Origin: a virus
Reading direction: 5' to 3' (one strand)
Length of the DNA stretch: 64,000 nucleotides
IMG/VR virus record: IMGVR_UViG_3300048918_000107
Shown here: positions 2,011 through 32,226 of the stretch, piece after piece
Layout: each line of letters begins with the position of its first letter
How positions within the stretch are numbered: position 1 is the first letter of the stretch
Notes under the pieces: model-generated
Told to the model about the DNA's origin: nothing
What the model saw: the letters and a program-made list of their open reading frames with translations, nothing else
Database searches by the model: none
Program-made: the position numbers and the translations under genes

Positions 2011-2390
2011 CTGGTCCTGACGAGTACCCTCACGTGAATGGGCACTGCCCGGCTTGCGGTAAGGAGCAGTTGGTCCTGGTAGGCAGCGACCTGATGTGTC
2101 TGCAGAAGGGGTGCTCAGCTCCGGACACGGCCACCAAGCTGCTGGCCGACTCTGAGACCGAGCATGTGGTCCGATTTGATGAGAGCGGATTCTTCACGGT
2201 GCGTCACCCTTTGCGGGAACGCGTCGGCGGCTCTCTCTTCGACTGCGGCGTCCACAGCCTCGTCTCCGATATGTGCGAAGGATTCGGCGGGCCTGGTGAG
2301 GGCCTGCACCGCCTGGTCTTCACACCAGAGGTCTACGTCCCCGGAGGACCGGATCAAGAGCCCGACTATCACCTGGAGCCGATCGAATGA
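2007..2390 (+). CDS. hypothetical protein with N-terminal zinc-ribbon-like CxxC pair
   Basis: ATGA overlap. Cys pattern CPACGKEQLVLVGSDLMCLQKGC. Confidence 0.6.
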   Translation: MTGPDEYPHVNGHCPACGKEQLVLVGSDLMCLQKGCSAPDTATKLLADSETEHVVRFDESGFFTVRHPLRERVGGSLFDCGVHSLVSDMCEGFGGPGEGLHRLVFTPEVYVPGGPDQEPDYHLEPIE

Positions 2391-2746
2391 TCACCCGACG
2401 CATAGAACACCTGTTCAAATGCGACCGTGACTGTGGGCGCACAGACCCCATTGTGGCCTCAGGGACTGATGATGCCGTGGCCCATGCCCGCACTCACGGC
2501 TGGCTGGTGCTCATGGGCAAACAGGAGCTGCAGGGCTGCTTCCTTGTCGGTCCGGGTGTTGTGGACCAGCACGTCACTTCCTACACCACGATCTGCCCCG
2601 ATTGCATGAAGCGGGATGAGCGTCCGCAGAACCATGACGAGATCGAAGCGTTCCTGGACATCTTCTACGAGGCGCACAACAACAACACGGTGGGTTTGGT
2701 GCGCGACACGTGGGACCGACGTCGCTACGAGATGCGTGAAGCGTGA
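2387..2746 (+). CDS. hypothetical protein
   Basis: Track ORF with ATGA overlap to the upstream gene. Confidence 0.6.
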   Translation: MITRRIEHLFKCDRDCGRTDPIVASGTDDAVAHARTHGWLVLMGKQELQGCFLVGPGVVDQHVTSYTTICPDCMKRDERPQNHDEIEAFLDIFYEAHNNNTVGLVRDTWDRRRYEMREA

Positions 2747-2831
2747 CCGTGGACCTGTCCAAGGTTTGGTCTTGCTGTAGTTTCTAGGACCTGATCGGTG
2801 TGGCCACGCGGGACAAGACGCGCAAATTCGG

Positions 2832-2861
2832 TAGTATTCAGCTCTAGGAACTGGTACACTT
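2832..2861 (+). promoter_or_regulatory. early-type promoter, weak -35
   Basis: Box CTCTAGGAACTGG 2842-2854. -10 TACACT. Leaderless ATG 2868. A degenerate box copy TTCTAGGACCTG lies at 2782-2793. Confidence 0.45.
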
Positions 2862-2867
2862 ACTGTC

Positions 2868-3383
2868 ATGACTGAAACCCCACCCACAGGTGATTTCACC
2901 CAGATGCCGGGCAACTGGCGGTTGTACGGCACTCCCCCTCGTCGCAAGCTGGTGCGCCTCAATGAGGCCGGAATGCCACTTGAGTGGATATACGAGGATG
3001 GCGGTGGACGTTTTTCCACGCCGGAATTCACTACCAAGCTCGCCGAGCTGCAGCGGTTCGCTCGCGAGCAGGCCGTCCTGAAGATTCAGGAGCGTGAGCT
3101 GGTCGCTGCGCGTGAGAGTGATGATCGTGAGGACGGTCGACGTCGCGCGGAAGCTCGGCGGGCAGCTGAAGAGATTGCGTCAGCGTCATCCACCGAGCAC
3201 ACCACGGAGTTCTGGGTGCGTCGCCCTGGCCAGCCCAAGAGTCATCACCACGGTCCGGTCGACACTGCCGCCGATGCGCGTCTGATCGCGAGCCTGCTCA
3301 ATCTCTACAGTCCGCCTGATGAAGGCGACGGAGAGTGGGAGGCCTATGTTGTCGAGACCACCGAGGAAGAGCGGCTGATCTGA
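2868..3383 (+). CDS. hypothetical protein (leaderless start)
   Basis: Track ORF. The ATG lies 7 nt after the -10-like TACACT that follows a TCTAGGAACTG box. Confidence 0.65.
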   Translation: MTETPPTGDFTQMPGNWRLYGTPPRRKLVRLNEAGMPLEWIYEDGGGRFSTPEFTTKLAELQRFAREQAVLKIQERELVAARESDDREDGRRRAEARRAAEEIASASSTEHTTEFWVRRPGQPKSHHHGPVDTAADARLIASLLNLYSPPDEGDGEWEAYVVETTEEERLI

Positions 3384-3712
3384 TGGCCGAGATCAACTTG
3401 CCTAACCTGGAGTCGCTCAAGTACGAGACCAACCGCCTGCGTCAGCACATGAACTCCCGTATCGGTGCGACGCCGGGCACCACGCGCAACCCTGATGCAC
3501 CAGCCACGGTTGCTGAGGTGACCGAGCTGTCCATCTTGCTCGATCAGGTGCTGAACATGCTGGCTCCGACCTCTGACAACGCGCGTCTTACCGCGATCGA
3601 GAACAACATCGCCGAGCTGAACCGGCATCAGCATCAGTACTACGTGTCCACCCTCAAGGGCAAGCAACTCGTCAAGACCACACGCCCTGTCGGATTCGGG
3701 AGCAAGCGATGA
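3383..3712 (+). CDS. hypothetical protein
   Basis: TGATG overlap with the upstream stop. In frame with track ORF 3335. Confidence 0.6.
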   Translation: MAEINLPNLESLKYETNRLRQHMNSRIGATPGTTRNPDAPATVAEVTELSILLDQVLNMLAPTSDNARLTAIENNIAELNRHQHQYYVSTLKGKQLVKTTRPVGFGSKR

Positions 3713-3786
3713 CCTGGGTCTGGTGGTGGCGGTGGATGGTTCTCATCACTCTCGTGTCCATCAACGCAGGCGTGTGGTTGCGGTGA
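3709..3786 (+). CDS. possible 25-aa hydrophobic Trp-rich micropeptide
   Basis: ATGA overlap. Peptide MTWVWWWRWMVLITLVSINAGVWLR. Below the track size cutoff. Confidence 0.3.
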   Translation: MTWVWWWRWMVLITLVSINAGVWLR

Positions 3787-3818
3787 AGGACCCCCGCTAA
3801 GCTCAGGAAGGATAAGTC

Positions 3819-4145
3819 ATGAGCATCGAAGATCAGTTCCACATGTCGGACAAGAACGAGCACGGCATGATCGTCACCTTCGACATCATCGAAGACGAGT
3901 CCGGTGACACCTACTGGGCCTATGGCCACGACATCACCCCTGAGCGCTTCACCGAGGAGCTGAGCCGATGGCTGGCGCATACCACCAACGAGACCTTGAG
4001 TGTCCACAAGGACACGCCACTGCATCTGGACCGGCTGTGGGCCCAGTACAACCCCAATCAGGCCGAGTACTTCAGCTTGACCGAGCCGCCCGCCTGCCAT
4101 CCGAGCGACTCCGAGAAGTTCCCCGTGACGCGGGTGATGCTCTGA
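3819..4145 (+). CDS. hypothetical acidic protein
   Basis: Track ORF with an AGGAAGGA RBS. Confidence 0.65.
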   Translation: MSIEDQFHMSDKNEHGMIVTFDIIEDESGDTYWAYGHDITPERFTEELSRWLAHTTNETLSVHKDTPLHLDRLWAQYNPNQAEYFSLTEPPACHPSDSEKFPVTRVML

Positions 4146-4321
4146 TGCCCCGCAAGATCGCAGGCCAAGGCTGGCAGAACCGCAACTCGCGCACCGGCAA
4201 GCTCATCTGCGGTGCGGACTTCAACGAGACCCAGTTCGGCTGGGACACCTGCACGCGTGACAGTGGCCACCGTGGTGATCACTACGACGGCATCAGCAAG
4301 CACTACGGGTCGAACACATGA
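4145..4321 (+). CDS. hypothetical protein
   Basis: TGATG overlap. In frame with the tail of track ORF 3968. Confidence 0.5.
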   Translation: MPRKIAGQGWQNRNSRTGKLICGADFNETQFGWDTCTRDSGHRGDHYDGISKHYGSNT

Positions 4322-4494
4322 GTCAGGAAGTCAAGTCCCTACAGGACCTCGCTCAAGAAGTAGAGGACCTCGTCAAGAGCGTGGCGACGCTGGAGAAGCG
4401 CTTCGAAGACCACACCCATCACTACTTCGAAGACAATCCGCATGACGCGTACGACAAGTGGGAGAACGACACCTCAGGCCCGGTGACGTCATGA
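4318..4494 (+). CDS. hypothetical coiled-coil-like protein (58 aa)
   Basis: ATGA overlap at both ends. Not in the track because it is under 60 aa. Confidence 0.5.
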   Translation: MSQEVKSLQDLAQEVEDLVKSVATLEKRFEDHTHHYFEDNPHDAYDKWENDTSGPVTS

Positions 4495-4646
4495 CGTTCG
4501 ATCAGATCGATCCGCTCGCCGATGTCGACTGCGTCTACGGTGAGGCAGGCATGCGCATCTGCGGATATACCCGAGGCTTCGTGCAGTCGTTCTGCTGCCA
4601 CCACGGTGAGGGCATCCCGGTAGAAGAGACAGGGATGAGCACGTGA
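4491..4646 (+). CDS. hypothetical protein
   Basis: ATGA overlap. In frame with track ORF 4458. Confidence 0.5.
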   Translation: MTFDQIDPLADVDCVYGEAGMRICGYTRGFVQSFCCHHGEGIPVEETGMST

Positions 4647-4858
4647 CCATGTGGGACGGCACGGTGCCGATCTTCGATCAGCTGGTGAGCGAGATAGGTT
4701 ATCCGTTCGACTATGACTGCTCCATCTCCTTCCCACGGTGGGAGGACTGGAAGCCGATCTTCTCGCACTACAGAGTCGGCCATCGCGTCGGCCTGAAGGA
4801 CCGTCAGGACTACTGCGCCACGTGCGAGAAGGTGCTGCCGAAGGTGGGTGGATTTTGA
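4643..4858 (+). CDS. hypothetical protein
   Basis: Track ORF. GTGA overlap, with an alternative ATG at 4649. Confidence 0.55.
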   Translation: MTMWDGTVPIFDQLVSEIGYPFDYDCSISFPRWEDWKPIFSHYRVGHRVGLKDRQDYCATCEKVLPKVGGF

Positions 4859-5151
4859 GGAAGGGCATCGCCGAGATCAACAAGCAGATCAAGCGCACCT
4901 CGTGGGAATCCGACCCGACCCCACAGCGCCGCTGCGGCACGTCCATTCAGCAGGAGAAGCTGGACCGGCGCATCCACGACGAGCGCCAGGCCTACTACGA
5001 CTCACTCAATGGCCCGGTGTCGCTGGGCCGTGATGAGAACTGCACGTGCCGTCCGTTCGCTATCAACGACGACGGCACAGACCCCAGAGACCACAACTGC
5101 CCGCTGCACGGCTGTCGGGGATTCGACGAGCCGTTCGGGTGGTGTGGATGA
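4855..5151 (+). CDS. hypothetical Cys-containing protein
   Basis: TTGA overlap start is inferred. In frame with track ORF 4738. The start is uncertain. Confidence 0.5.
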   Translation: MRKGIAEINKQIKRTSWESDPTPQRRCGTSIQQEKLDRRIHDERQAYYDSLNGPVSLGRDENCTCRPFAINDDGTDPRDHNCPLHGCRGFDEPFGWCG

Positions 5152-5204
5152 TGGTTTGGATGGCACTGATCACCATGATCACCGTCTGGATTCTGTTGTC
5201 CTGA
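5148..5204 (+). CDS. possible 18-aa hydrophobic micropeptide
   Basis: ATGA overlap. Peptide MMVWMALITMITVWILLS. Confidence 0.25.
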   Translation: MMVWMALITMITVWILLS

Positions 5205-5218
5205 GAGAAAGAGAGTTG

Positions 5219-5332
5219 ATGGACGTTTTCGATGTGATCGGTGAGTTCCTGGAGGACATGCCCTGGGAGTTCGTCGTGACGTTCTTGTTCGGTGCGCTCG
5301 TGGGCGCGGGATTGATGTGGTGGTACTTGTGA
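5219..5332 (+). CDS. possible 37-aa single-pass membrane peptide
   Basis: A purine-rich RBS (GAGAGAAAGAGAG) precedes the ATG. Hydrophobic tail FVVTFLFGALVGAGLMWWYL. Confidence 0.4.
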   Translation: MDVFDVIGEFLEDMPWEFVVTFLFGALVGAGLMWWYL

Positions 5333-5535
5333 GTGACGAACCTCAGCTGCTGGCCGACTGGCTTGGTCAGGGCATTGCGTCCCAGTTCGACGTCCAGGAC
5401 ACCAGCATGACCGGGCCTTACACCTTGGACGTCGCCGGTCCGATCGATCTGGAAGAGTTGGCCGTGTTCCTTGCGCAGAAGCAGGCGCTGCGCCAGATCA
5501 AGTGGCCACCGGCCAAGATCAGTGGGTCGCTATGA
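5329..5535 (+). CDS. hypothetical protein
   Basis: GTGA overlap. In frame with track ORF 5317. Confidence 0.55.
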   Translation: MSDEPQLLADWLGQGIASQFDVQDTSMTGPYTLDVAGPIDLEELAVFLAQKQALRQIKWPPAKISGSL

Positions 5536-5684
5536 CCGGCCCAGAAGAGCGCCGCGCGCACGCCTTGCGTGCCGCCGTGCTCTACCACAAGGAACAGAGC
5601 GCTAGTGAGCGCCGAGTGCTGCAGACCGCGCAGGCATTCGAGAAGTTCATCAATCATGGCAGCATTGAGACGTCGGAGCACTGA
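5532..5684 (+). CDS. hypothetical protein
   Basis: ATGA overlap. In frame with track ORF 5502. Confidence 0.5.
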   Translation: MTGPEERRAHALRAAVLYHKEQSASERRVLQTAQAFEKFINHGSIETSEH

Positions 5685-6181
5685 TGGTGGAATCCAGAAT
5701 CGGTCCGTGCGGTGGGCAAGGTGGGTTCATCACGCTACTGCGTCCCAATGAGCAGGGCGTGCTCAATCGCATGGCCTACTTGCAGATCATCGAGCATGAC
5801 ACGCCACGCCCATTTGACGAACCTCCCATGGACAAGCACCGTCTGGTGCTAAAATTCTATGAGCTGTGGAGCAGGACTTTCTGGGATGACATCGTAGCCA
5901 GCGATGACCAGTGGTCGGCCTTGTGTGATCGGATGAAGTCCGGGGAGATCGTCATGCAGCAGATCATCAGATCGCCTGTGAATAGGATGCGTCGCCGTCA
6001 GTTCGATCTCGATCGCGCCACCTTCCATCCGGACCTGAAGAACGTCATACTCACGAGGAAGGACGACAGCCCGATGTTCACTCAGGCAGGCATCATCCTG
6101 CCGTGGCAGTTCATCATCAATGGCGCTGGCCCTGCCCGCATGGTCCCCGAACCCGAAGACGAGAAAGAGAAGCCCGTATGA
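5684..6181 (+). CDS. hypothetical protein
   Basis: Track ORF with TGATG overlap. Confidence 0.65.
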   Translation: MVESRIGPCGGQGGFITLLRPNEQGVLNRMAYLQIIEHDTPRPFDEPPMDKHRLVLKFYELWSRTFWDDIVASDDQWSALCDRMKSGEIVMQQIIRSPVNRMRRRQFDLDRATFHPDLKNVILTRKDDSPMFTQAGIILPWQFIINGAGPARMVPEPEDEKEKPV

Positions 6182-6828
6182 CCCGACCACTTCAGACGCC
6201 CAGTGGTATGCCCGCGAGCACGCCCATCCCCCGCATGCCAGACGGCTCGCCGATGACCAAGAGCCAGGCCCGCATGAAGCGCGCTCTTACCAACGTCGAA
6301 GCCCGACTGAGTACTGCCCCTGAAGAGCCCGCGTTCGATGAGCAGACCGCCGCCGAGTACTTGGAGAAGTACCCACCGGTCATGTGGAAGGACGATGAGA
6401 GCGCCCATATCCATCCCGCCACAGAATCAAAGAACGTCGACTTCGAGCAGAAGTTCGAGCCGGGCATCTACACAGATAGCACCGAGCCCTGGGTCGATGA
6501 CAGCGAGCGAATGGCCCGTAACCCTGAGACTGCCGAGCGGCTGAGCAAGCTCACCGACGAGCAGGTGATCTCCATGCAGGTGGACAATCCTGAGCCAGTC
6601 CTCAAGACTCTGGGTGTGGAGGTCGATCCGCAGGTGGTCACCGAGGCCTTCAGGGACGCTGAAGCGCTGAACGAAGAGCATCAGGCCGAGGTCGACGCCT
6701 ACGACGCCGAAGCGGTTCGATTGAAGATGAACGAGGAGACACTGCGCTCCCGTGAGAAGACCCCGGCGCAGAAGCGCGCGGAGACCATGGCCCGCAAGAA
6801 GGCCGAGAGAGAGGCCGACAATGGCTGA
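6178..6828 (+). CDS. hypothetical acidic protein
   Basis: ATGA overlap. In frame with track ORF 6103. Confidence 0.65.
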   Translation: MTRPLQTPSGMPASTPIPRMPDGSPMTKSQARMKRALTNVEARLSTAPEEPAFDEQTAAEYLEKYPPVMWKDDESAHIHPATESKNVDFEQKFEPGIYTDSTEPWVDDSERMARNPETAERLSKLTDEQVISMQVDNPEPVLKTLGVEVDPQVVTEAFRDAEALNEEHQAEVDAYDAEAVRLKMNEETLRSREKTPAQKRAETMARKKAEREADNG

Positions 6829-7009
6829 CGTGACCGCTGCCGACATCAAGGAACTCGCCGACAAGGTCGCCGACATCGCCATGGCTGGTGAGTTTCAGGG
6901 TGAGAACATTCTCGATGACTCCTACGTCAACGAGCGCCTATCCTGGGCTCTGTCTGGGCTGACCCAGGTTTTCGATCATCTCGCGAGCAAGGAGTCCACT
7001 GATGGATAG
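6821..7009 (+). CDS. hypothetical protein
   Basis: ATG lies 8 nt inside the upstream gene end. In frame with track ORF 6752. Confidence 0.55.
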   Translation: MADVTAADIKELADKVADIAMAGEFQGENILDDSYVNERLSWALSGLTQVFDHLASKESTDG

Positions 7010-7271
7010 TCCTGATCAGGTTCTTAGCACTACGACCGCACGGGTGTTTCAGGACCCCGACGGCTACGAGATTGTGGAGCTGAGCTTCAGTAATGGGTCA
7101 GCCCTGCTGATGCATGCCTCTCAGTACTACGCCATCATCTACGACACCGCCAGCGATGAAGGGCGCATCGAAGCCACGTTGCAGATTCACAAGCACCGGG
7201 TCGCTCAGCAGGGCAAGCGTGAAGCCACCTTGGCTCAGGAAGCACTCGATGCTCGTCAGGCTGCAGGATGA
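7002..7271 (+). CDS. hypothetical protein
   Basis: Track ORF. Confidence 0.6.
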   Translation: MDSPDQVLSTTTARVFQDPDGYEIVELSFSNGSALLMHASQYYAIIYDTASDEGRIEATLQIHKHRVAQQGKREATLAQEALDARQAAG

Positions 7272-7771
7272 CCGACTGTGTGTTTTGCCCGGACAACTGG
7301 GACAACCTGGACATCGTGTCTAGGCACACGATGAGCACTGGCGAGTACGCCATCGTCAATCCGCTCGACCCGGTGACGATGGGCCACGTGCTGGTGATCA
7401 GCGCCGAGCACACCTCCAACGCCGCTCACAAGCCCTACCAAGTGTCGGGGCCGCTGTTCGCTATCGCCTGCGATTACGCCGATCGCTTCATCGACCAGGC
7501 CAACATCATCACCAGCATCGGCCCGGACGCCACGCAGACGGTGATGCACACGCACGTCCACGTCGTCCCCAGACGCCCGAACGACGGCCTGCCGCTGCCC
7601 TGGACGCCGCAGCACGAGCTGAAGCGCCTGCATGCTATTCAGGCCCTGCGGCAGGTTCAGAAGGAGTCGAGCTTCGACAATTACTCCATGGGCATCTTCC
7701 AGCAGCAGCCGACATCGTGGCCCGAGGTGGCCGATAAGCTCGCAGAAGGGCTGACTTACGGTGACGACTAG
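7268..7771 (+). CDS. HIT (histidine triad) family nucleotide hydrolase/transferase
   Basis: Histidine triad HTHVHVVPR and N-terminal CVFC. ATGA overlap with the upstream gene. Confidence 0.75.
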   Translation: MTDCVFCPDNWDNLDIVSRHTMSTGEYAIVNPLDPVTMGHVLVISAEHTSNAAHKPYQVSGPLFAIACDYADRFIDQANIITSIGPDATQTVMHTHVHVVPRRPNDGLPLPWTPQHELKRLHAIQALRQVQKESSFDNYSMGIFQQQPTSWPEVADKLAEGLTYGDD

Positions 7772-8192
7772 CGCGCGCCCGACCACCCTGCGGCATCCGC
7801 AGGCATCCCTGGAGGCGACGATTGCCTCAAAGCTCACCGTGCTGGGCAGTGGTATCGACCCCGGCGACCGCCGAAGGCTGTCTCTGGAGATCATCGCCGA
7901 CATCAAGGAGCTGATCTATCTGGAGGTCGCCGAGGCGCTCAAGCCGACGCCAGAGCCCGAGCCTGTGATCTATGAACAGGACCTGCGCAAGCACCTGTAC
8001 CGCACCGGCCTGCACGATTGGGCCATCTCGCTCACCCACATTCCCACCGGCTTCAAGGAGGGCCGCAACAGCGGCGAGCTGGGCGAGAATCTCGAACCCC
8101 TCTGGAAGTCGCAACTGCAGGCAACCGCCGACGCCCTTAACGCCTTGGAGGGAAGAGTCCGTGCTGAACTCGCGCGTACGGCTGGCAACTGA
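7761..8192 (+). CDS. hypothetical protein
   Basis: Track ORF with a GTG start. Confidence 0.6.
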   Translation: MTTSARPTTLRHPQASLEATIASKLTVLGSGIDPGDRRRLSLEIIADIKELIYLEVAEALKPTPEPEPVIYEQDLRKHLYRTGLHDWAISLTHIPTGFKEGRNSGELGENLEPLWKSQLQATADALNALEGRVRAELARTAGN

Positions 8193-8352
8193 TACCCATC
8201 AGTGCCCGGCCTGCCTGGCCTATCCCGGTGACGTCTGCGTGCCGCGACAGGATGACGATTCTCCCTGGATGCACAAGGACCGAGGCGACGTCTACGACCT
8301 GAACCTGCGTATCGATGCCGCTGCCGCACGCGGAGAGTTCGTGCTGCGATGA
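8161..8352 (+). CDS. small CxxC-P-C-H zinc-finger-like protein (paralog family)
   Basis: GTG start with a GGAGGGA RBS. Motif QCPACLAYPGDVCV...H. Confidence 0.5.
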   Translation: MLNSRVRLATDTHQCPACLAYPGDVCVPRQDDDSPWMHKDRGDVYDLNLRIDAAAARGEFVLR

Positions 8353-8570
8353 GCGACAACTGCGAGAACAGCATCTTCTCCAAGGAGCGCAACCGAGTGG
8401 GCTCATGCCCACACCCGGAGAAGCGCCGGTTCTACTCCAAGCATGAGGCCAACGGTGCAGCCGGGCTGAACAGGGATGAGAGGACCAGGGATGTCGACGG
8501 TAAGACGATGCGCGTCTATCAGTGCGGCATGCACTTCCATTTGACCAGCTCACCGGTTTGGATCGAGTAA
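8349..8570 (+). CDS. hypothetical protein
   Basis: Track ORF with ATGA overlap. Confidence 0.6.
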   Translation: MSDNCENSIFSKERNRVGSCPHPEKRRFYSKHEANGAAGLNRDERTRDVDGKTMRVYQCGMHFHLTSSPVWIE

Positions 8571-8584
8571 TTTGTTCCAGGGGC

Positions 8585-8614
8585 TTGCATTAGTTCCAGG
8601 ACCTGTGCCATACT
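8585..8614 (+). promoter_or_regulatory. early-type promoter
   Basis: TTGCAT-18 nt-CATACT with a TTCCAGGACCTG box. ATG 8621 lies 7 nt after the -10. Confidence 0.6.
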
Positions 8615-8620
8615 TGAGTC

Positions 8621-8872
8621 ATGAGCAACACAGCCTCCCCCGAAGTCAAGTCCACCATCTGCGTGGCCTACTTCAACAAGGTCACAGGCAACGTGTGGGT
8701 CGAGAACTCCTCGGGTACCGAGAGTATCCAGCTCGCCCAGAACATCAACGGCACCCAGAAGGCCTACGCGGTCCTGGGCGTCGCCGGAATGATCCGCCGG
8801 GGCAGCTGGGGCATCGTCCCCGGCATGCCGCAGGTTCGGCAGGTCACCGCAGTCTTCCCGCAGGAGGATTGA
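8621..8872 (+). CDS. hypothetical protein (leaderless start)
   Basis: Track ORF. The ATG lies 7 nt after -10 CATACT. Confidence 0.65.
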   Translation: MSNTASPEVKSTICVAYFNKVTGNVWVENSSGTESIQLAQNINGTQKAYAVLGVAGMIRRGSWGIVPGMPQVRQVTAVFPQED

Positions 8873-8874
8873 TC

Positions 8875-8988
8875 ATGGACGTTGAGTACTGTGCGGAGTG
8901 TGGATTCAACGTCACCAATGGCCCACACAGCCTGTACTGCCACCTGAATCTCAACTCTTTGGTTTTAGGAGTTGCAGAACAACGGTGA
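8875..8988 (+). CDS. possible 37-aa Cys-rich peptide
   Basis: Strong CAGGAGGA RBS. The 3' end runs into the tRNA-like minihelix. Confidence 0.4.
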   Translation: MDVEYCAECGFNVTNGPHSLYCHLNLNSLVLGVAEQR

Positions 8989-9017
8989 GGATCACGGGTT
9001 CGATTCCCGCCTCACCG
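8983..9017 (+). ncRNA. acceptor/T-arm-like minihelix (or terminator hairpin)
   Basis: 8-bp stem CGGTGAGG/CCTCACCG encloses CGGG-TTCGATT-CCCG. Confidence 0.35.
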
Positions 9018-9100
9018 GGTGCATTCGACCAGGCACGGATAGGTCACCGCAAGATCGGTAAACGTGAGCGGAGGATGGGGTTCGAATCCTTGATGCACCA
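9018..9100 (+). pseudogene. tRNA-like element with enlarged anticodon loop (degenerate tRNA)
   Basis: Perfect acceptor GGTGCAT/ATGCACC. D stem GACC/GGTC. T loop TTCGAAT. A 4-bp stem CCGC/GCGG closes a 17-nt loop. Confidence 0.4.
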
Positions 9101-9101
9101 C

Positions 9102-9130
9102 TTGCTTTCCTTTCTAGGAACTGTCATGCT
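9102..9130 (+). promoter_or_regulatory. early-type promoter
   Basis: TTGCTT-17 nt-CATGCT with a TTCTAGGAACTG box. Confidence 0.6.
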
Positions 9131-9165
9131 TGAATGACCGACCCACCCACAGAAAGGCACCCACC

Positions 9166-9465
9166 ATGAGCGCAATCACCCGACGCAATCTACGCACCGT
9201 TCATCTCTCGGTGGCAGCTCGTGAAGAATTCAGCTGCAACTACAGTCTGACCGGCACCTCGGATCGGCTTGCCTACGTCGGGTATCTCCCCAAGGAGTAC
9301 CACGAGGCTTACACCAAGGCGCGTTCGGCACCGGACTTCTACATGGTGCGCAGCTACTCGACGCCCATCGCCTGGTACGCCAACGGTGAGTGGACCAAGC
9401 CGCCGGTCAAGTACAGCTCGACCACCAGCCGTCACCAGTCCTCACTTCGCCTCTACGACATCTGA
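9166..9465 (+). CDS. hypothetical protein
   Basis: ATG follows the ACCCACAGAAAGG leader. In frame with track ORF 9130. Confidence 0.6.
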   Translation: MSAITRRNLRTVHLSVAAREEFSCNYSLTGTSDRLAYVGYLPKEYHEAYTKARSAPDFYMVRSYSTPIAWYANGEWTKPPVKYSSTTSRHQSSLRLYDI

Positions 9466-20058: not shown

Positions 20059-20300
20059 TCTGGCTGCTGTGGCTGTACGGCGTCGGCGTCGTTGTTGCGC
20101 TGGTGATCGTGGTCTGTGACATCAGTCCGTTGGAGGTGGCACGCCAGGAGACCAGCACGATGGCGGCGGGGTGGACGTTCATCCTCTTCTGCTTCGTTTG
20201 CGTCATTTTGGCTGCAGCATGGCCGGTAGTGCTTGCCCTCCTGGGATTGGGCTGGATTGTCGGTACCGGTGTCGGCCTGCTGGTGAAAGGAAAGAGATGA
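20055..20300 (+). CDS. membrane protein
   Basis: Track ORF with ATGA overlap and three hydrophobic helices. Confidence 0.6.
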   Translation: MIWLLWLYGVGVVVALVIVVCDISPLEVARQETSTMAAGWTFILFCFVCVILAAAWPVVLALLGLGWIVGTGVGLLVKGKR

Positions 20301-21484
20301 CCACCCACGACGACAAGCTCTTCGCCGAGCTGGGCGCATTGTTCGCCAAGGCCAACCGGCAGCTTTTCCTGGTCGGCGGTTCGGTACGCGACATCACCTT
20401 GAGCCGTGAGGTCAAGGATTGGGACTTCACCACCAACGCCACGCCCGAGGAGATCGAAGAGATCGTCATCGACTGGTGTGACGCGCTGTGGGACGTGGGC
20501 CGGGACTTCGGCACCATCGCGCTGCGCAAGCGTGATGTAGACATCGAGATCACTACGTTCCGCATCGACGGCCCCGGACGCAAGCCCACGGTGGAGTTCT
20601 CCGACTCGCTGCTCGATGACCTGCGTCGCCGGGACTTTACCGTCAATGCGATGGCCTGCCCTGTGACTGCCGAGGGTATCGACTTCGGTGCGGAGTCCCT
20701 GATCGATCCGTTCGGCGGCATGGGACACCTGCTGCAGCGCGTCCTGGACACGCCGCGCTCTGCCGAGGAGTGCTTCAACGATGACCCGCTGCGCATGATG
20801 CGCGCAGCGCGTTTCTCCGCACAGTTGGGGTTCAATCCCTCCAAGCGGGTCATGGATGCATGCCGGGGACTGGGTCCGCGTATCAAGACCATCAGCGCCG
20901 AGCGCGTGCAGGCCGAGCTGACCAGGCTGCTCTCGGCACCCTTCCCGGAGAAGGGTGTGCGCTTCATGCACGACTCCAAACTGCTGCGGATCATCCTGCC
21001 GGGGGTGTCCGCGATCGACACCTACCAGATGCTGCTGGGCGACGACTGGCAGACCCGGCTGGCTGACCTGATGCGGCAGGTCGGGCCCTTCGCGGTGCGC
21101 GAGATCATGATGCGTCTGAAGATGAGCAACGCTGACATCCAGTTGGTCACGAACCTCGTGACGTGGGTCCATCGTTTCGAGAAGTCCACGTGGACCGATG
21201 GCGCTGTCCGCCGCCTCATCGCTGCCGCTGGAGAGGACCTGGAGCGAATTTTGACGCTCATGGGTGACATCACCCTGGATGCACGTGCTAGGGAGGTTTT
21301 GGAGCGCGAGGGACACCCGGAGCCGCCGCTGACCGGCAAGGAGATCATGGACGTCCTGGGCGTCGAGCCCGGACCTCGTGTTGGCGAGGCTCAGCGTTTC
21401 TTGTGGCAGTCTCGGCTGGACGGTGGTCCACAGACCAAGGACAACGCAGAAAGGACACTGAAGGCATGGGCGGCACTGTCGTGA
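20297..21484 (+). CDS. cca: tRNA nucleotidyltransferase (CCA-adding enzyme), class II
   Basis: Motifs GGSVRD, DWDFTT and RRDFTVNAMA. ATGA-coupled start inside track ORF 20171. Confidence 0.8.
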   Translation: MTTHDDKLFAELGALFAKANRQLFLVGGSVRDITLSREVKDWDFTTNATPEEIEEIVIDWCDALWDVGRDFGTIALRKRDVDIEITTFRIDGPGRKPTVEFSDSLLDDLRRRDFTVNAMACPVTAEGIDFGAESLIDPFGGMGHLLQRVLDTPRSAEECFNDDPLRMMRAARFSAQLGFNPSKRVMDACRGLGPRIKTISAERVQAELTRLLSAPFPEKGVRFMHDSKLLRIILPGVSAIDTYQMLLGDDWQTRLADLMRQVGPFAVREIMMRLKMSNADIQLVTNLVTWVHRFEKSTWTDGAVRRLIAAAGEDLERILTLMGDITLDARAREVLEREGHPEPPLTGKEIMDVLGVEPGPRVGEAQRFLWQSRLDGGPQTKDNAERTLKAWAALS

Positions 21485-27964: not shown

Positions 27965-28273
27965 ATGGCAGAAGTCTTCGAGATCGCTGGACAGATCAAG
28001 CTGTTCAAGGCTGGACTGATGGGCACGGCGGTCACCGTGCACAGCAGCTACGAGGGTGGCTACGGCCCGCACGTGCTGGAGGTCGAGCCGGGCAAAATGG
28101 TCATCGTCCGTTTGGATGATGAAGAGATCGAGACGCAGCTGGAGTTCGCGGGCGCGTACATCTGCGGCTTCATCGAGGCCGTGGGTGGTGACCTGCGGAA
28201 AACCAAAATCTGGCTGGAACCGTTCCATGATGTTCTAGGAACTGTTGACACTGACCATGTAGAACCCGTATAG
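27965..28273 (+). CDS. hypothetical protein
   Basis: Track ORF. Its 3' end reads through a TTCTAGGAACTG box, and its TAG lies inside TATAGT. Confidence 0.6.
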   Translation: MAEVFEIAGQIKLFKAGLMGTAVTVHSSYEGGYGPHVLEVEPGKMVIVRLDDEEIETQLEFAGAYICGFIEAVGGDLRKTKIWLEPFHDVLGTVDTDHVEPV

Positions 28274-28274
28274 T
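28233..28274 (+). promoter_or_regulatory. box copy fused to near-consensus promoter upstream of DUF932 gene
   Basis: TTCTAGGAACTGT at 28233-28245, then TTGACA-18 nt-TATAGT with TGTAGAA in the spacer. Confidence 0.5.
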
Positions 28275-28323: not shown

Positions 28324-29547
28324 GTGTCCACCACCATCCTCCCCGACCTGCCGACCACCAACCTGATCGGTGCCGACATCCCCACCCTGATCTCGGTGCT
28401 CAAAGACCAGGACGCCCAGCGTCTGGACGCGGTCGTGCCGCGTAGCTCCATTCGGGTCAACTCGATGGGCAACCTGGAGTTCGCCACGATTGATGAGGTC
28501 GAGACCACCAAGCCGATCATCACCCTTGAGGGCTCGCCCACTTCGTTCAACCCCTCCGGTGCCTACGGATTGACCGCCAACGCCGAGGCTCAGGTCGCCG
28601 CGATGTTCAAGATTCCGCTGGAGTACCTGCGTCGGTCGAAGGTTCTGGACCCGGCTTTCTACGCCCAGCAGATCAACGAATGGGCCAAGGTCGCCGAGGG
28701 TGCCAACATGCTGCGCCTGATGTGGGGCAAGGTCGAAGGTCGTCCGGAGCTGACCGGCATGGCCCGCGCCATCATGAGTGACAAGTACAAGCGGATGGAC
28801 AACTTCGACACCCTGGTGTCCCTGCTGGAGGGTCTGGGTGAGGCAGGCAACGCCGCTGGTATCGACATCGGTCCGCAGCACATCCAACAGATCAGCCTGA
28901 CCGACTCGCGGATGTACATCGACATCAACGTCCCGGAGATCGCCATCAACGGTCGCGAACTGGTCAAGGGCTACCACAGCCCCTACACCGGTCTGAGCGG
29001 TGCCGAGCTGCCCTTGATGAACGCGGGTGTGCGGATCACCAACTCCGAGACCGGCAAGGGCCGTTTGGCCTTCATCCCCCGCGCGATGTTCCAGGTTTGC
29101 ACCAACGGCATGCAGATGAACGCCTTCGGCATGTTCAAGACCCACCTGGGCACCAAGATCGAAGAGGGTGTCATCGACTGGTCCGACGCCACCATCGAAG
29201 CCCACGACCAGCTCATCAAGAGCCAGGTCAAGGACGCCGTCAGCACCTTCCTGTCGACGGACTTCCTGGACAAGATGCTGACCGAGGCCGAGAAGGACGC
29301 CGGGGTTCCCGTCGCTCGCCCGGAGACCACGGTCCAGCTGGTGGCCAAGGAGATGCGCTACACCGACGAACGCGCCGACGCGATCCTGAAGAACTTCATG
29401 GAGGGTGGCAAGTTCACCTCCGGTGGTCTCTTCCAGGCCGTCACCGCCACGGCTCGGGACTTGGCCCAGGTCGACCCGGACGCCGAGTACGAACTGGCTT
29501 CCAGCGCTCCGCAGGCCATGAAGGTCGCGGCCAAGGTCGCCAGCTAG
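28324..29547 (+). CDS. DUF932/DUF945-like phage-plasmid protein
   Basis: The segment GVRITNSETGKGRLAFIPRAMFQVCTNGM resembles the NS.DGS...F.VC.NG signature. GTG start with a GAAGGAGA RBS. Confidence 0.65.
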   Translation: MSTTILPDLPTTNLIGADIPTLISVLKDQDAQRLDAVVPRSSIRVNSMGNLEFATIDEVETTKPIITLEGSPTSFNPSGAYGLTANAEAQVAAMFKIPLEYLRRSKVLDPAFYAQQINEWAKVAEGANMLRLMWGKVEGRPELTGMARAIMSDKYKRMDNFDTLVSLLEGLGEAGNAAGIDIGPQHIQQISLTDSRMYIDINVPEIAINGRELVKGYHSPYTGLSGAELPLMNAGVRITNSETGKGRLAFIPRAMFQVCTNGMQMNAFGMFKTHLGTKIEEGVIDWSDATIEAHDQLIKSQVKDAVSTFLSTDFLDKMLTEAEKDAGVPVARPETTVQLVAKEMRYTDERADAILKNFMEGGKFTSGGLFQAVTATARDLAQVDPDAEYELASSAPQAMKVAAKVAS

Positions 29548-29557
29548 CCACCTGAAC

Positions 29558-29601
29558 GAGGCCCGGTCTCCCTTACCCCCCCCCCCAGGAGACCGGGCCT
29601 C
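29558..29601 (+). terminator. hairpin terminator candidate with poly-C loop
   Basis: 14-bp stem GAGGCCCGGTCTCC/GGAGACCGGGCCTC with a 16-nt loop containing C11. No U tract follows. Confidence 0.55.
29576..29586. repeat. C11 homopolymer
   Basis: Counted directly in the sequence. Lies in the loop of the 29558-29601 hairpin. Confidence 0.9.
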
Positions 29602-29630
29602 CCCACTTTCCACCCACCAGAAAGAAGACC

Positions 29631-29849
29631 ATGAGCGCCAAGATCAAGCGAAGCGTCAGCATCGACGTCTGCTGGAGAGACCTCAAGGGGCAGGACATCA
29701 TCGACTTTGCCGAGGAGATCAAAGCGGCCAACGGCGCAAATGATCCGGTCAAGTGTGAGGTCACGGCGCACGAGCCGGACCACAGCAAGGGTCAGTACTT
29801 CACCAAGTACGACGTCATCCTGACGCATTCGGGACCTGCTCATGACTGA
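29631..29849 (+). CDS. hypothetical protein
   Basis: Track ORF preceded by the CCACCCACCAGAAAGAAGA leader. Confidence 0.55.
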   Translation: MSAKIKRSVSIDVCWRDLKGQDIIDFAEEIKAANGANDPVKCEVTAHEPDHSKGQYFTKYDVILTHSGPAHD

Positions 29850-30600
29850 TCTGAAGACCCGGCACTACGCCGAAGCGGTCATCCTTGCTTCGGTGCTGAC
29901 CGTCACGAGCTACGTCCTGGCCGAGGTCGCAGGATGGCAGGTCACCACCGGATGGGTGCACTGGGTCGAGGTGTTGGCCGTGTGGACCAGCTACGTGTCC
30001 ACGTGGCTCTGCGTGCGCCAGCGACGCTGGAATTACGTCTGGGGATCGATCAGCTCGGTGTTGTACGCCGTGTTGTTCCTGCAGTCCAACCTGCTCGCCT
30101 CAGCCATCCTGAACGCCTATCTCGCGCCCGCGCTGGCCTACGGCTGGGTCCGCTGGCGTCAGGACACCAACACCCGGCCTGTGGCCAACCTGAAGTGGCG
30201 CTGGGTGCCCGTCTACGCCATCAGCACGGCGGTCGCCTACTGGGGAGCCGTTCAGGTCGCTCACTTCTTCGGTGGCTCCATGGCTGCGTGGGACTCGGTC
30301 ATCCTGATCGGCACGATCCTGGCCCAGTTCCTGCTGGACAACAAGAAGCTCCAGACCTGGTACGTCTGGGCGGTTGTCAACGTCATCGCCATCATCACCT
30401 ACTCCACCTCAGGGCTATGGCTGGTCGCTTTCCAGTACGTCCTGTTCCTGATCAACACCTACATCGGATACCGAGTCTGGAAGAAGAGCCTGATCAAGCA
30501 GTCACGGGAGCTTTACAAATTCGACATCAATACCAGTCGCTGGCCGTTCGAGGAGTCGACCGGAGAGACAACGATCAAACTCAAATCGGAGGAATCGTGA
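29842..30600 (+). CDS. pnuC: nicotinamide riboside transporter PnuC-like
   Basis: About 7 TM helices. Two internal repeats carry W..G...Y/N..YGW..W-type motifs (NAYLAPALAYGWVRW; NTYIGYRVW). Confidence 0.75.
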   Translation: MTDLKTRHYAEAVILASVLTVTSYVLAEVAGWQVTTGWVHWVEVLAVWTSYVSTWLCVRQRRWNYVWGSISSVLYAVLFLQSNLLASAILNAYLAPALAYGWVRWRQDTNTRPVANLKWRWVPVYAISTAVAYWGAVQVAHFFGGSMAAWDSVILIGTILAQFLLDNKKLQTWYVWAVVNVIAIITYSTSGLWLVAFQYVLFLINTYIGYRVWKKSLIKQSRELYKFDINTSRWPFEESTGETTIKLKSEES

Positions 30601-31661
30601 CGCGTAAAGCGTTCGTCCTAATGACAGCCATGCCGCCGACCACGGGTCACCTGCAGCTGATCCAGTTCGCTAAGGGCTTGTCCGATCACGTCGTGGTGAT
30701 GTTCACCAGCCAGCCCGATGAACCGTTCGCTGAGGAGCGCGCGCTGGCGCTGCAGATCGCTATCGATCGAGTTGCTCCACTCACTCACGCGGAGTTCATC
30801 CACTACACCCGGCCTATGGACCCCAATCCAGAGTCCGAAGGCTTCCGGGACCGCTGGGCGGGCATCATGATCGGTGCCGGTGCCAACCCCGGTGACCTGC
30901 TGGTGATCAGTGAGTCCTGGGGTCGGTGGTTGGCCGAGATGACCGAGATGGACTGGCGTCCCTACGACATCGCTCGGGAGATCAACGCGACCAAGGGCAC
31001 GCGGGTGCGCGAGGACCCGTACCGGAACTGGGACGCCATCCTTCCGGAGTTCCGCAAACACCTTCAGGTACGTGTGACCATCTTCGGGGCGGAGTCGGTC
31101 GGCAAGACCACGCTGGCTCAGCGTCTGCGCGAAGTGCACCACGGCAACAGCCGGTTCCCGGCATGCACCGTGCTGCCCGAGTACGCGCGCCCGTATCTGG
31201 AGAACACCGTCAACGAGATCACCGTGCGCTCCATGAAGGCGATCTGGGAGGGCCAGCGGGCGCTGCAGCGCCAGGAGTACTTGGATCACCCGCTGATCGT
31301 TCAGGACACTGACCTGTTATCCACCTGGGGGTACTGGAAGTACTGGACAGAGCGAATCGATCAGAAACGTGATCTTGGCTGGCCACCCGAGCAGCTGTAT
31401 TCGGACGCTCGCGAGCTGAAGAGTGACCTCTACATCATGCCGCCGTCGGTGGTGCCTTTCGAGCCCGATCCGCTGCGTTACGGCGGCGATCGACGGGAGA
31501 TCGAAGACCACTACTGGGTGAACCTCTGCGCGTGGCAGAACCTGAACTTTCGGGTGCTCGGTCAAGACCCTGACCTCTGGGTGCACGAGTCGGTGAAACT
31601 GATTCAGGATGAGATGACCAAGAAGGCCGAGCTGATGGCCTATGACCGTAATGGGTACTGA
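30597..31661 (+). CDS. nadR: NadR-like bifunctional NMN adenylyltransferase / ribosylnicotinamide kinase (no HTH domain)
   Basis: Nucleotidyltransferase motif PPTTGHLQLI. P-loop GAESVGKTTL. GTGA-coupled start with a GGAGGAA RBS. Confidence 0.75.
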   Translation: MTRKAFVLMTAMPPTTGHLQLIQFAKGLSDHVVVMFTSQPDEPFAEERALALQIAIDRVAPLTHAEFIHYTRPMDPNPESEGFRDRWAGIMIGAGANPGDLLVISESWGRWLAEMTEMDWRPYDIAREINATKGTRVREDPYRNWDAILPEFRKHLQVRVTIFGAESVGKTTLAQRLREVHHGNSRFPACTVLPEYARPYLENTVNEITVRSMKAIWEGQRALQRQEYLDHPLIVQDTDLLSTWGYWKYWTERIDQKRDLGWPPEQLYSDARELKSDLYIMPPSVVPFEPDPLRYGGDRREIEDHYWVNLCAWQNLNFRVLGQDPDLWVHESVKLIQDEMTKKAELMAYDRNGY

Positions 31662-31668
31662 GAAGGGT

Positions 31669-32226
31669 ATGACCGTCCTGGTCAGTGATGATCGCGGGCG
31701 CGTCGCCTGCGGGGAGTATCTGGCTCTGGAGATCGTCGCCTATGAGATTCTGGCTGAGGACCGGCGCAATGGCTCCAAGCGCATAGTCGACCAGCAGTTT
31801 TGGCTGTCTGAAGAGCAGTTCAGTCTGCGATACAAGCACGAGGTCTACAACAAGAACGGCGTCGCTGAGGCATCCCTGTATCAGGGCATGTACCGGCGGG
31901 CGTACAACCCGTTGATGGCGCATGACAGTCGACCGAGAAGGAAGTTCCGGGTCAACAGTGATGAGCTTGAGGACCCTTACTTCGATGTCAAAAGGCAGGG
32001 GGCGACACCCCATGCGAACATCAGTGCAGACCCCTGGGGCCCAACCCGGTCACCCTGGTGGAACGACTATGGCTACCACGGTCTGGACCGTTATCAGCGC
32101 TGCCGCATCCGCCGGGCGTACTGGTCGGCAGGGTCGCAGAAGCTGATCGTCAAGGCACAACTGGCCGAGAAGTACGGAGTACCACCCTGGGTCATCTCAC
32201 GAGTTGCGATATCTTCCAGGAGCTGA
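31669..32226 (+). CDS. hypothetical protein
   Basis: ATG with a GAGAAGGG RBS. In frame with track ORF 31642. The next promoter lies in its 3' end. Confidence 0.6.
   Translation: MTVLVSDDRGRVACGEYLALEIVAYEILAEDRRNGSKRIVDQQFWLSEEQFSLRYKHEVYNKNGVAEASLYQGMYRRAYNPLMAHDSRPRRKFRVNSDELEDPYFDVKRQGATPHANISADPWGPTRSPWWNDYGYHGLDRYQRCRIRRAYWSAGSQKLIVKAQLAEKYGVPPWVISRVAISSRS

Follow-up and report, generated by a model that had tools for sequence, protein, structure and literature searches.

Phage-borne synthesis of nicotinamide adenine dinucleotide (NAD+) through NadR and PnuC already has published precedents. Phage NadR was surveyed in 2022 (PMC9503650), and the preprint that defined NARP1 and NARP2 reported that phage NadR usually lies in an operon with PnuC and that the two might form a further NAD+ pathway (Osterman et al. 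2024; 10.1101/2024.02.11.579819). In August 2026 the pair of phage Bas30 (Escherichia phage TrudiRoth) was reported to import nicotinamide riboside (NR) and to produce NAD+ in two steps; the pathway was named NARP3 and its structures are available as 9X6H and 9X6F (PMC13464706). Bas30 PnuC and its NadR, which lacks the helix-turn-helix (HTH) domain, restore phage plating against Sir2-HerA and DSR1, and a BLAST census in the same paper counted 124 modules, mostly from phages of Enterobacteriaceae (PMC13464706). Here we describe a pnuC gene and an adjoining nadR-like gene in a stretch of 64,000 nucleotides from the IMG/VR virus record IMGVR_UViG_3300048918_000107, and refer to that whole stretch as the window.

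The concept and the mechanism of NAD+ reconstitution by a phage PnuC-NadR pair are thus already published. An earlier note on this DNA, made from the sequence alone, had put forward the uptake-based route as a distinct solution to NAD+ depletion, a claim that falls because phage NadR with PnuC was foreseen in the 2024 preprint (10.1101/2024.02.11.579819) and then shown as NARP3 (PMC13464706). Nor is a phage-encoded importer of the host membrane as unusual as the note had supposed: a PnuC homologue is present in 459 phage records and PHROGs already holds families for both proteins. What is new is modest, namely the distance of this pair from the characterised one (23-26% identity), its reversed gene order, its MTAMPPTTGH motif and a host clade that is new for the module.

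We think it probable that the pair is a NARP3-type NR salvage cassette of a Bixzunavirus-like phage with an actinobacterial host, which would sustain NAD+ and could blunt NAD+-depleting defences. As in Bas30_86/87, it forms a two-gene phage module in which a PnuC-type transporter and an HTH-less NadR, combining ribosylnicotinamide kinase with nicotinamide mononucleotide (NMN) adenylyltransferase (NMNAT), lie adjacent on the same strand. The TxGH signature, the arginine of the second NMNAT motif, Walker A, Walker B, the lid arginines and the PnuC WxxW(x)3N motif are common to both. The two modules differ in gene order, pnuC-nadR in the window but nadR-pnuC in Bas30, and in their phages, the window being from a Bixzunavirus-like actinobacterial myovirus whereas Bas30 is a T5-like enterobacterial phage. 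They also differ in that K10 and F11 of Bas30_86 are T10 and A11 in the window NadR, whose nearest cellular relatives are in Saccharibacteria and Actinobacteria. No T5-like phage was among the matches listed from tblastn searches with the window proteins at E<=1e-5, and a census by BLAST closeness to Bas30_86/87 would not have found the window pair. By analogy, the pair would work like NARP3 but from a separate lineage.

In the mechanism that we propose, PnuC would enter the host cytoplasmic membrane during infection and external NR would diffuse in. Phosphorylation by the kinase domain of the NadR-like enzyme, translated together with PnuC, would turn NR into NMN and so trap it in the cell, and the N-terminal adenylyltransferase domain would then form NAD+ from NMN and ATP. 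Facilitated diffusion combined with metabolic trapping is how Pnu transporters operate (PMC5749112). The net result would be a host-independent supply of NAD+ for phage replication which, by analogy with Bas30_86/87, could offset depletion by SIR2-HerA and DSR systems, and it is on this analogy that we infer a counter-defence role for the window pair. The complete route from external NR through NMN to NAD+ that the earlier note had proposed does appear to be encoded, judging by homology.

The transporter matches Pfam PF04973 (E 2.4e-36; 125.7 bits, cut-off 27.3) and passes the threshold of the TIGR01528 equivalog 'nicotinamide riboside transporter PnuC' (66.6 bits, cut-off 42.45). It also matches PHROG 1880 (E 5e-30) and the sequence of the Neisseria mucosa PnuC crystal structure 4QTN (E 4.7e-6), and does not reach the threshold of NF011926, the enterobacterial PnuC subfamily (74 bits, cut-off 335). 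Hydropathy gives eight membrane segments, a profile compatible with the 3+1+3 pseudo-symmetric seven-transmembrane (7-TM) core of Pnu proteins plus an extra N-terminal helix; the C-terminal tail of about 35 residues is hydrophilic. The 7-TM topology of the earlier note therefore holds for the core but not for the total, and the duplicated motif, which it gave as W..YGW, is better written G(W/Y)xxW. Its two copies, GWVRW (101-105) and GYRVW (209-213), correspond to the gate tryptophans at the ends of TM3 and TM7, which have been described for Pnu transporters at the cytoplasmic ends of these helices (PMC5749112).

Members of the Pnu family carry various B-type vitamins, among them NR and, in the case of PnuT, thiamine, and the residue that ends the WxxW(x)3(N/D) motif of TM6 is N in PnuC and D in PnuT (PMC5749112). 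In the window protein this ligand-binding motif lies at residues 173-180 and reads W173-Y-V-W176-A-V-V-N180. When the protein was aligned with E. coli PnuC, N. mucosa PnuC and Bas30_87, the columns of W173, W176 and N180 were invariant, as were those of Y65, G101, W105, D151 and G209, while N64 and W213 were nearly so. Only one of the three NR-binding residues of Bas30_87 (N45, Q94 and N180) is conserved, namely N180; N45 is replaced by S50 and Q94 by L98. Loss of the glutamine does not settle the matter: E. coli PnuC is known to transport NR and has no glutamine at this position either. The equivalog match, together with the near-obligate linkage to an NR-kinase gene, points to NR as the probable substrate of the window PnuC.

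The NadR-like protein matches AAA_28 (E 2.7e-13) and PHROG 3462, 'nicotinamide-nucleotide adenylyltransferase' (E 2.8e-39), and its matches among protein structures by sequence are NadR 8x7f (5.9e-9), Lactococcus lactis NadR 6gye (9e-8), Bas30_86 9x6f (1.3e-3) and also 1lw7. For both proteins of the pair the family matches are far beyond chance by their E-values. A confident AlphaFold2 model built with 55 homologues (predicted local distance difference test score, pLDDT, 93.3; predicted template modelling score, pTM, 0.90) has two domains, an N-terminal Rossmann nucleotidyltransferase and a C-terminal P-loop kinase. The top eight Foldseek matches to this model were all NadR (8x7f, 6gyf, 1lw7, 6gye and 6gzo), with TM-scores of 0.62-0.71 and E-values of about 1e-14 over some 370-390 aligned columns, and NadR alone gave full-length structural matches. 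The protein belongs to the NadR superfamily and fold and lies outside the enterobacterial/Haemophilus equivalog.

The kinase motifs are present, as are the TxGH half of the first NMNAT motif and the arginine of the second. PPTTGH occupies residues 13-18 and GAESVGKT residues 164-171, and in comparison with E. coli NadR and Bas30_86 the invariant positions are G17 and H18, R138 in the second NMNAT motif ((S/T)xxxxR), G164, E166, S167, G169 and K170 in Walker A, D237 and T238 in Walker B, D277, and the lid residues D291, R294 and R300. The protein starts three residues before its first beta-strand and has no N-terminal HTH domain, which accounts for about 62 extra N-terminal residues of E. coli NadR in the alignment. 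This absence is normal, as neither L. lactis NadR (PMC7221760) nor Bas30_86 (PMC13464706) has the domain. The conserved residues suggest that the enzyme has NR kinase activity and, in its N-terminal domain, NMNAT activity. On these points the earlier note was right: it had named the two motifs and the missing HTH domain, and both of its family assignments were confirmed by profile and structure searches, through PF04973 and TIGR01528 for PnuC and through AlphaFold2 and Foldseek for NadR.

Both reading frames also lie where the note had placed them (Table 1), and the coupling that it described can be read directly from the sequence. The TGA stop codon of pnuC is overlapped by the GTG start of the nadR-like gene at 30597 (GTGA), and the nadR-like open reading frame (ORF) continues in the +1 frame to 31661. 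This GTG is backed as the start because relatives conserve residues 4-11 (KAFVLMTA), which fold into the first beta-strand in the model. Alternative ATG starts at M9 or M12 were ruled out, since the residues before them are conserved and make up strand 1 of the fold.

Table 1. Positions of the pnuC-nadR pair, its sequence motifs and adjoining elements in the window
Feature	Coordinates	Strand	Basis or remark
pnuC, Pnu-family NR transporter (predicted), 252 residues	29842..30600	+	profile, structure-sequence and alignment matches
nadR-like gene, 354 residues, without HTH; putative NMN adenylyltransferase at residues ~1-150 and ribosylnicotinamide kinase at ~155-354	30597..31661	+	
Shine-Dalgarno-like GGAGGA within the 3' end of pnuC, 3 nt ahead of the nadR-like GTG	30588..30593	+	sequence reading
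T15-T16-G17-H18, (H/T)xGH nucleotidyltransferase signature of the NMNAT domain	30639..30650	+	G17 and H18 invariant in the subfamily, E. coli NadR and Bas30_86
Walker A P-loop GAESVGKT, residues 164-171, ribosylnicotinamide kinase domain	31086..31109	+	alignment with E. coli NadR and Bas30_86
Perfect 14-bp inverted repeat (GAGGCCCGGTCTCC / GGAGACCGGGCCTC) with a 16-nt loop holding a C11 run; terminator-like hairpin without U-tract	29558..29601	+	
72-residue ORF, PHROG 37993 (E 3.4e-12), GC content at third codon positions 0.79	29631..29849	+	stop overlaps the PnuC start (ATGACTGA)

Bacterial pnuC-nadR operons of Saccharibacteria and Actinobacteria (for example in GCA_028289245.1, Kineosporiaceae, Aeromicrobium and Cellulomonas) have the same gene order as the window, stop and start codons that overlap or nearly abut, and an HTH-less NadR with the MPPTTGH variant, at 45-50% identity for NadR and 50-60% for PnuC. 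They differ in serving cellular housekeeping salvage, whereas the window pair lies among phage early genes, between two homologues of cluster C backbone genes. Pairs are also found in large phages, namely Microbacterium phages Cece, Big4, Zooman and A3Wally, Ochrobactrum phage vB_OspM_OC, Sinorhizobium phages phiM12, phiM7 and phiN3, Agrobacterium phage Atu_ph07 and the Caulobacter CcrBL9 group. These share the NadR subfamily (29-46% identity), the PnuC family and the order pnuC-nadR, and are already so annotated in GenBank. The two that we examined, Cece and vB_OspM_OC, have NadV/NAPRT-like genes nearby, Cece also a gene related to phosphoribosyl pyrophosphate (PRPP), but no homologue of these genes was found in the 64 kb of the window; in the Microbacterium phages three genes separate pnuC from nadR. 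The PnuC-NadR systems of Haemophilus influenzae and L. lactis (PDB 1LW7, 6GYE and 4QTN) resemble the window pair in fold and in its predicted two-step chemistry, and in L. lactis also in the lack of an HTH, but they are cellular and only about 16-21% identical in structural alignments.

The two genes are closely linked in nearly all the loci examined for this NadR subfamily. Of the 34 bacterial loci, 28 have pnuC on the same strand no more than about 100 bp upstream of nadR and four have it further upstream; the two loci without it end at a contig edge. Every one of the 20 IMG/VR viral contigs that hold this type of NadR also has pnuC on the same strand and upstream of it, the distance ranging from an overlap to 1.4 kb. 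The pair is adjacent in six distinct metagenomic phage-like contexts, some with unrelated flanks, including two phage-like contigs of about 162 kb that are unrelated to the window in their flanks. As the linkage holds across bacterial, viral and phage-like loci, pnuC and nadR move and persist as a unit.

Most members of the NadR subfamily come from Candidatus Saccharibacteria or from Actinobacteria (Kineosporiaceae, Aeromicrobium, Cellulomonas, Microthrixaceae and others), with identities of 39-50%. In one bacterial locus (JGI Ga0069787_10095163, 2255-9343; L007) the pair is clustered with genes for an ADP-ribosylglycohydrolase, a His_Phos_1 protein, a PncA-like isochorismatase, a PncB-like NAPRTase and a NUDIX protein. 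Because the nearest cellular relatives are of these two groups, the phage seems to have acquired an entire bacterial pnuC-nadR operon of the Saccharibacteria/Actinobacteria type, by a capture independent of the NARP3 of enterobacterial phages.

A metagenomic relative that is 98% identical to the window (L003; JGI Ga0496107_0000044) allowed selection to be estimated. The ratio of nonsynonymous to synonymous substitution rates (dN/dS) was 0.11 for PnuC and 0.21 for NadR, and both genes are under purifying selection. Flanking genes show no nucleotide differences at all (for example 2088 bp at 35356-37446), while across the block from 28.3 to 31.7 kb, which holds a gp73-like gene, pnuC and nadR, the synonymous rate is 0.09-0.17. 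This suggests that the block at about 28324-31661 has been replaced by recombinational allele exchange. The amino-acid changes in NadR relative to L003 cluster in the C-terminal helix, at residues 305-348.

The window is phage DNA from a distant relative of the cluster C (Bixzunavirus) mycobacteriophages. Its portal homologue shares 74% identity with the portal of Mycobacterium phage Mangeria, its gene order and its tRNA cluster (37.5-39.6 kb) match those of cluster C phages, and nearly all of its predicted genes are on the + strand. The relationship is a distant one, the wider region giving about 80% identity to cluster C mycobacteriophages over only about 5% of its length. With the pair as query, megablast against 50,697 phage records gave no near-identical phage, and searches of phage records found the pair in none of the sequenced cluster C phages. 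The cassette is flanked by a homologue of Mangeria gp73 and NoodleTree gp72 (PHROG 1362; 28324-29547) and by a DUF7236 gene (31642-32226), and in NoodleTree the corresponding slot is occupied by two unrelated small genes. The pair sits in a variable slot of a cluster C-like backbone.

The DUF7236 gene overlaps the end of nadR by 20 nt and accompanies the pair in three related contigs. It was considered as a third component of the system and rejected, as more than 200 cluster C phages without the pair have homologues at this place in the backbone, and as the gene is not beside the pair in other phage contexts.

Several observations weigh against reading the pair as a NARP3-type cassette. The window proteins are only 23% (NadR, E 1e-7) and 26% (PnuC, E 3e-10) identical to Bas30_86/87. 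The NadR-like protein matches TIGR01526 with an E-value of 9.1e-20 but with 71.1 bits against an equivalog cut-off of 341.15, scores 54.5 bits against NF005988, where the equivalog cut-off is 201, and matches Pfam CTP_transf_like below threshold. In its NMNAT domain M9-T10-A11 (MTAMPPTTGH) replaces the first half of the canonical GxFxPxH motif, where Bas30_86 has G9-K10-F11, and a K10A/F11A mutant of Bas30_86 is impaired (PMC13464706). The route also depends on external NR, the supply of which to a soil actinobacterium is uncertain. Finally, the genome is perhaps 150-160 kb long, of which the window covers 64 kb, and other NAD genes may lie elsewhere in it. Within the 64 kb, tblastn with the NAPRT-like and PRPP-related proteins of Cece and the NadV protein of the Ochrobactrum phage found no homologue, and 20 neighbouring or large ORFs held no NAD-related Pfam domain.

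The divergent motif and the low scores leave a small chance that substrate or product differ, with the Pnu protein importing another vitamin or nucleoside, or the N-terminal domain being inactive or not specific for NMN and the enzyme acting as a kinase only. Pnu-family members do carry thiamine as well as NR (PMC5749112), and S50 and L98 stand in the window PnuC where Bas30_87 has two of its NR-binding residues. The PnuC equivalog was nevertheless passed, the ligand motif ends in N as in PnuC, and E. coli PnuC manages without the second of these residues. G17, H18, R138 and all the kinase motifs are invariant, and the same subfamily occurs in bacterial NAD-salvage clusters with pncA and pncB. 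The M-T-A variant is common to the whole subfamily, and P13, P14, T15, G17 and H18 are invariant in 55 sequences. We read it as a functional variant because it is subfamily-wide and because the subfamily lies in bacterial NAD-salvage neighbourhoods. It is improbable that with M-T-A in place of G-K-F the enzyme prefers another mononucleotide, makes a different dinucleotide, or only phosphorylates NR for host enzymes to complete the synthesis; were it so, the cassette would be mechanistically distinct from NARP3. The evidence favours a milder alternative, the independent capture of a Saccharibacteria/Actinobacteria-type operon, and this would bring NARP3-like salvage into phages whose hosts are actinobacterial, possibly of mycobacterial type.

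It is possible, though on balance we doubt it, that the same conversion of NR through NMN to NAD+ serves chiefly as metabolic support for the replication and nucleotide metabolism of a large lytic phage, and not counter-defence. Genes for NAD synthesis, nadR and pnuC among them, occur commonly in phages of medium to jumbo size, where they have been interpreted as auxiliary metabolism (PMC9503650; PMC11662467). The Microbacterium and Ochrobactrum phages combine the two genes with NadV-like and PRPP-related genes, the cellular counterpart is a plain salvage operon, and the window has other functions of host independence in a CCA-adding enzyme, tRNAs, a glutaredoxin and a HIT-domain protein. The sole experimental test of such a pair, however, gave a counter-defence phenotype (PMC13464706). 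The pair is moreover accessory and not required, because all sequenced cluster C mycobacteriophages do without it, a pattern that fits a conditional benefit such as defence evasion. Metabolic support and counter-defence are compatible with each other. It is very improbable that the genes are decaying or non-functional passengers brought in by illegitimate recombination. They do lie in a mosaic, variable slot, next to a 206-bp indel relative to L003, but both frames are intact with the catalytic motifs in place, the NMNAT one in its variant form, the dN/dS ratios are low, and the pair has been kept in lineages that are only 54-70% identical at the protein level.

If the pair is active as an NR salvage cassette, NAD+ reconstitution by NR uptake would not be limited to enterobacterial phages and would have arisen more than once by capture of a whole operon. 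NARP3-like salvage would then reach relatives of the cluster C mycobacteriophages, which bears on phage-host conflict in Actinobacteria, and so compact a cassette could in principle help engineered actinophages against NAD+-depleting defences. As concept and mechanism are both published, the locus opens no new question.

The surroundings of the pair hold several further features. The hairpin upstream of pnuC (Table 1) sits just 3' of the stop codon of gene 28324-29547, ahead of the cassette. Its predicted RNA folds at -33 kcal/mol (z = -6.1), and none of 200 shuffled sequences folded equally well. L003 keeps the same stem, with C7 in the loop where the window has C11. It is uncertain whether the hairpin is part of the pnuC-nadR system. 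The 72-residue ORF that follows is an optional passenger outside the core of the system: the 206 bp that hold it (29635-29840) are missing from L003, where pnuC comes directly after the hairpin. This segment is a precise, gene-sized indel before pnuC, and both of its junctions fall on ATGA start/stop overlaps.

No sigma-70-type promoter was found immediately 5' of pnuC. The closest promoter-like site, at 28245-28274, lies just 5' of gene 28324-29547 and has TTGACA and TATAGT separated by an 18-nt spacer (11/12 matches); it is the sole such site within 6 kb around the cassette. A search for an NAD+ riboswitch or other known RNA 5' of pnuC gave nothing meaningful locally, Rfam returning only tRNAs at its gathering threshold.

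The tRNAs of the window include a Ser/Leu cluster at 37534-38109. Rfam at the gathering threshold gave two of the Leu tRNAs only, and not a tRNA with anticodon CTA that ARAGORN called 3' of this cluster, at 39514-39585; the call is labelled tRNA-Pyl, would be amber-suppressor-like and is unconfirmed. In the early-gene region there are genes for a HIT-domain protein at 7268-7771 (PF01230, 6e-10), a CCA-adding tRNA nucleotidyltransferase at 20171-21484 (PolyA_pol head domain, 3.7e-30) and a glutaredoxin at 35054-35353 (2e-13).

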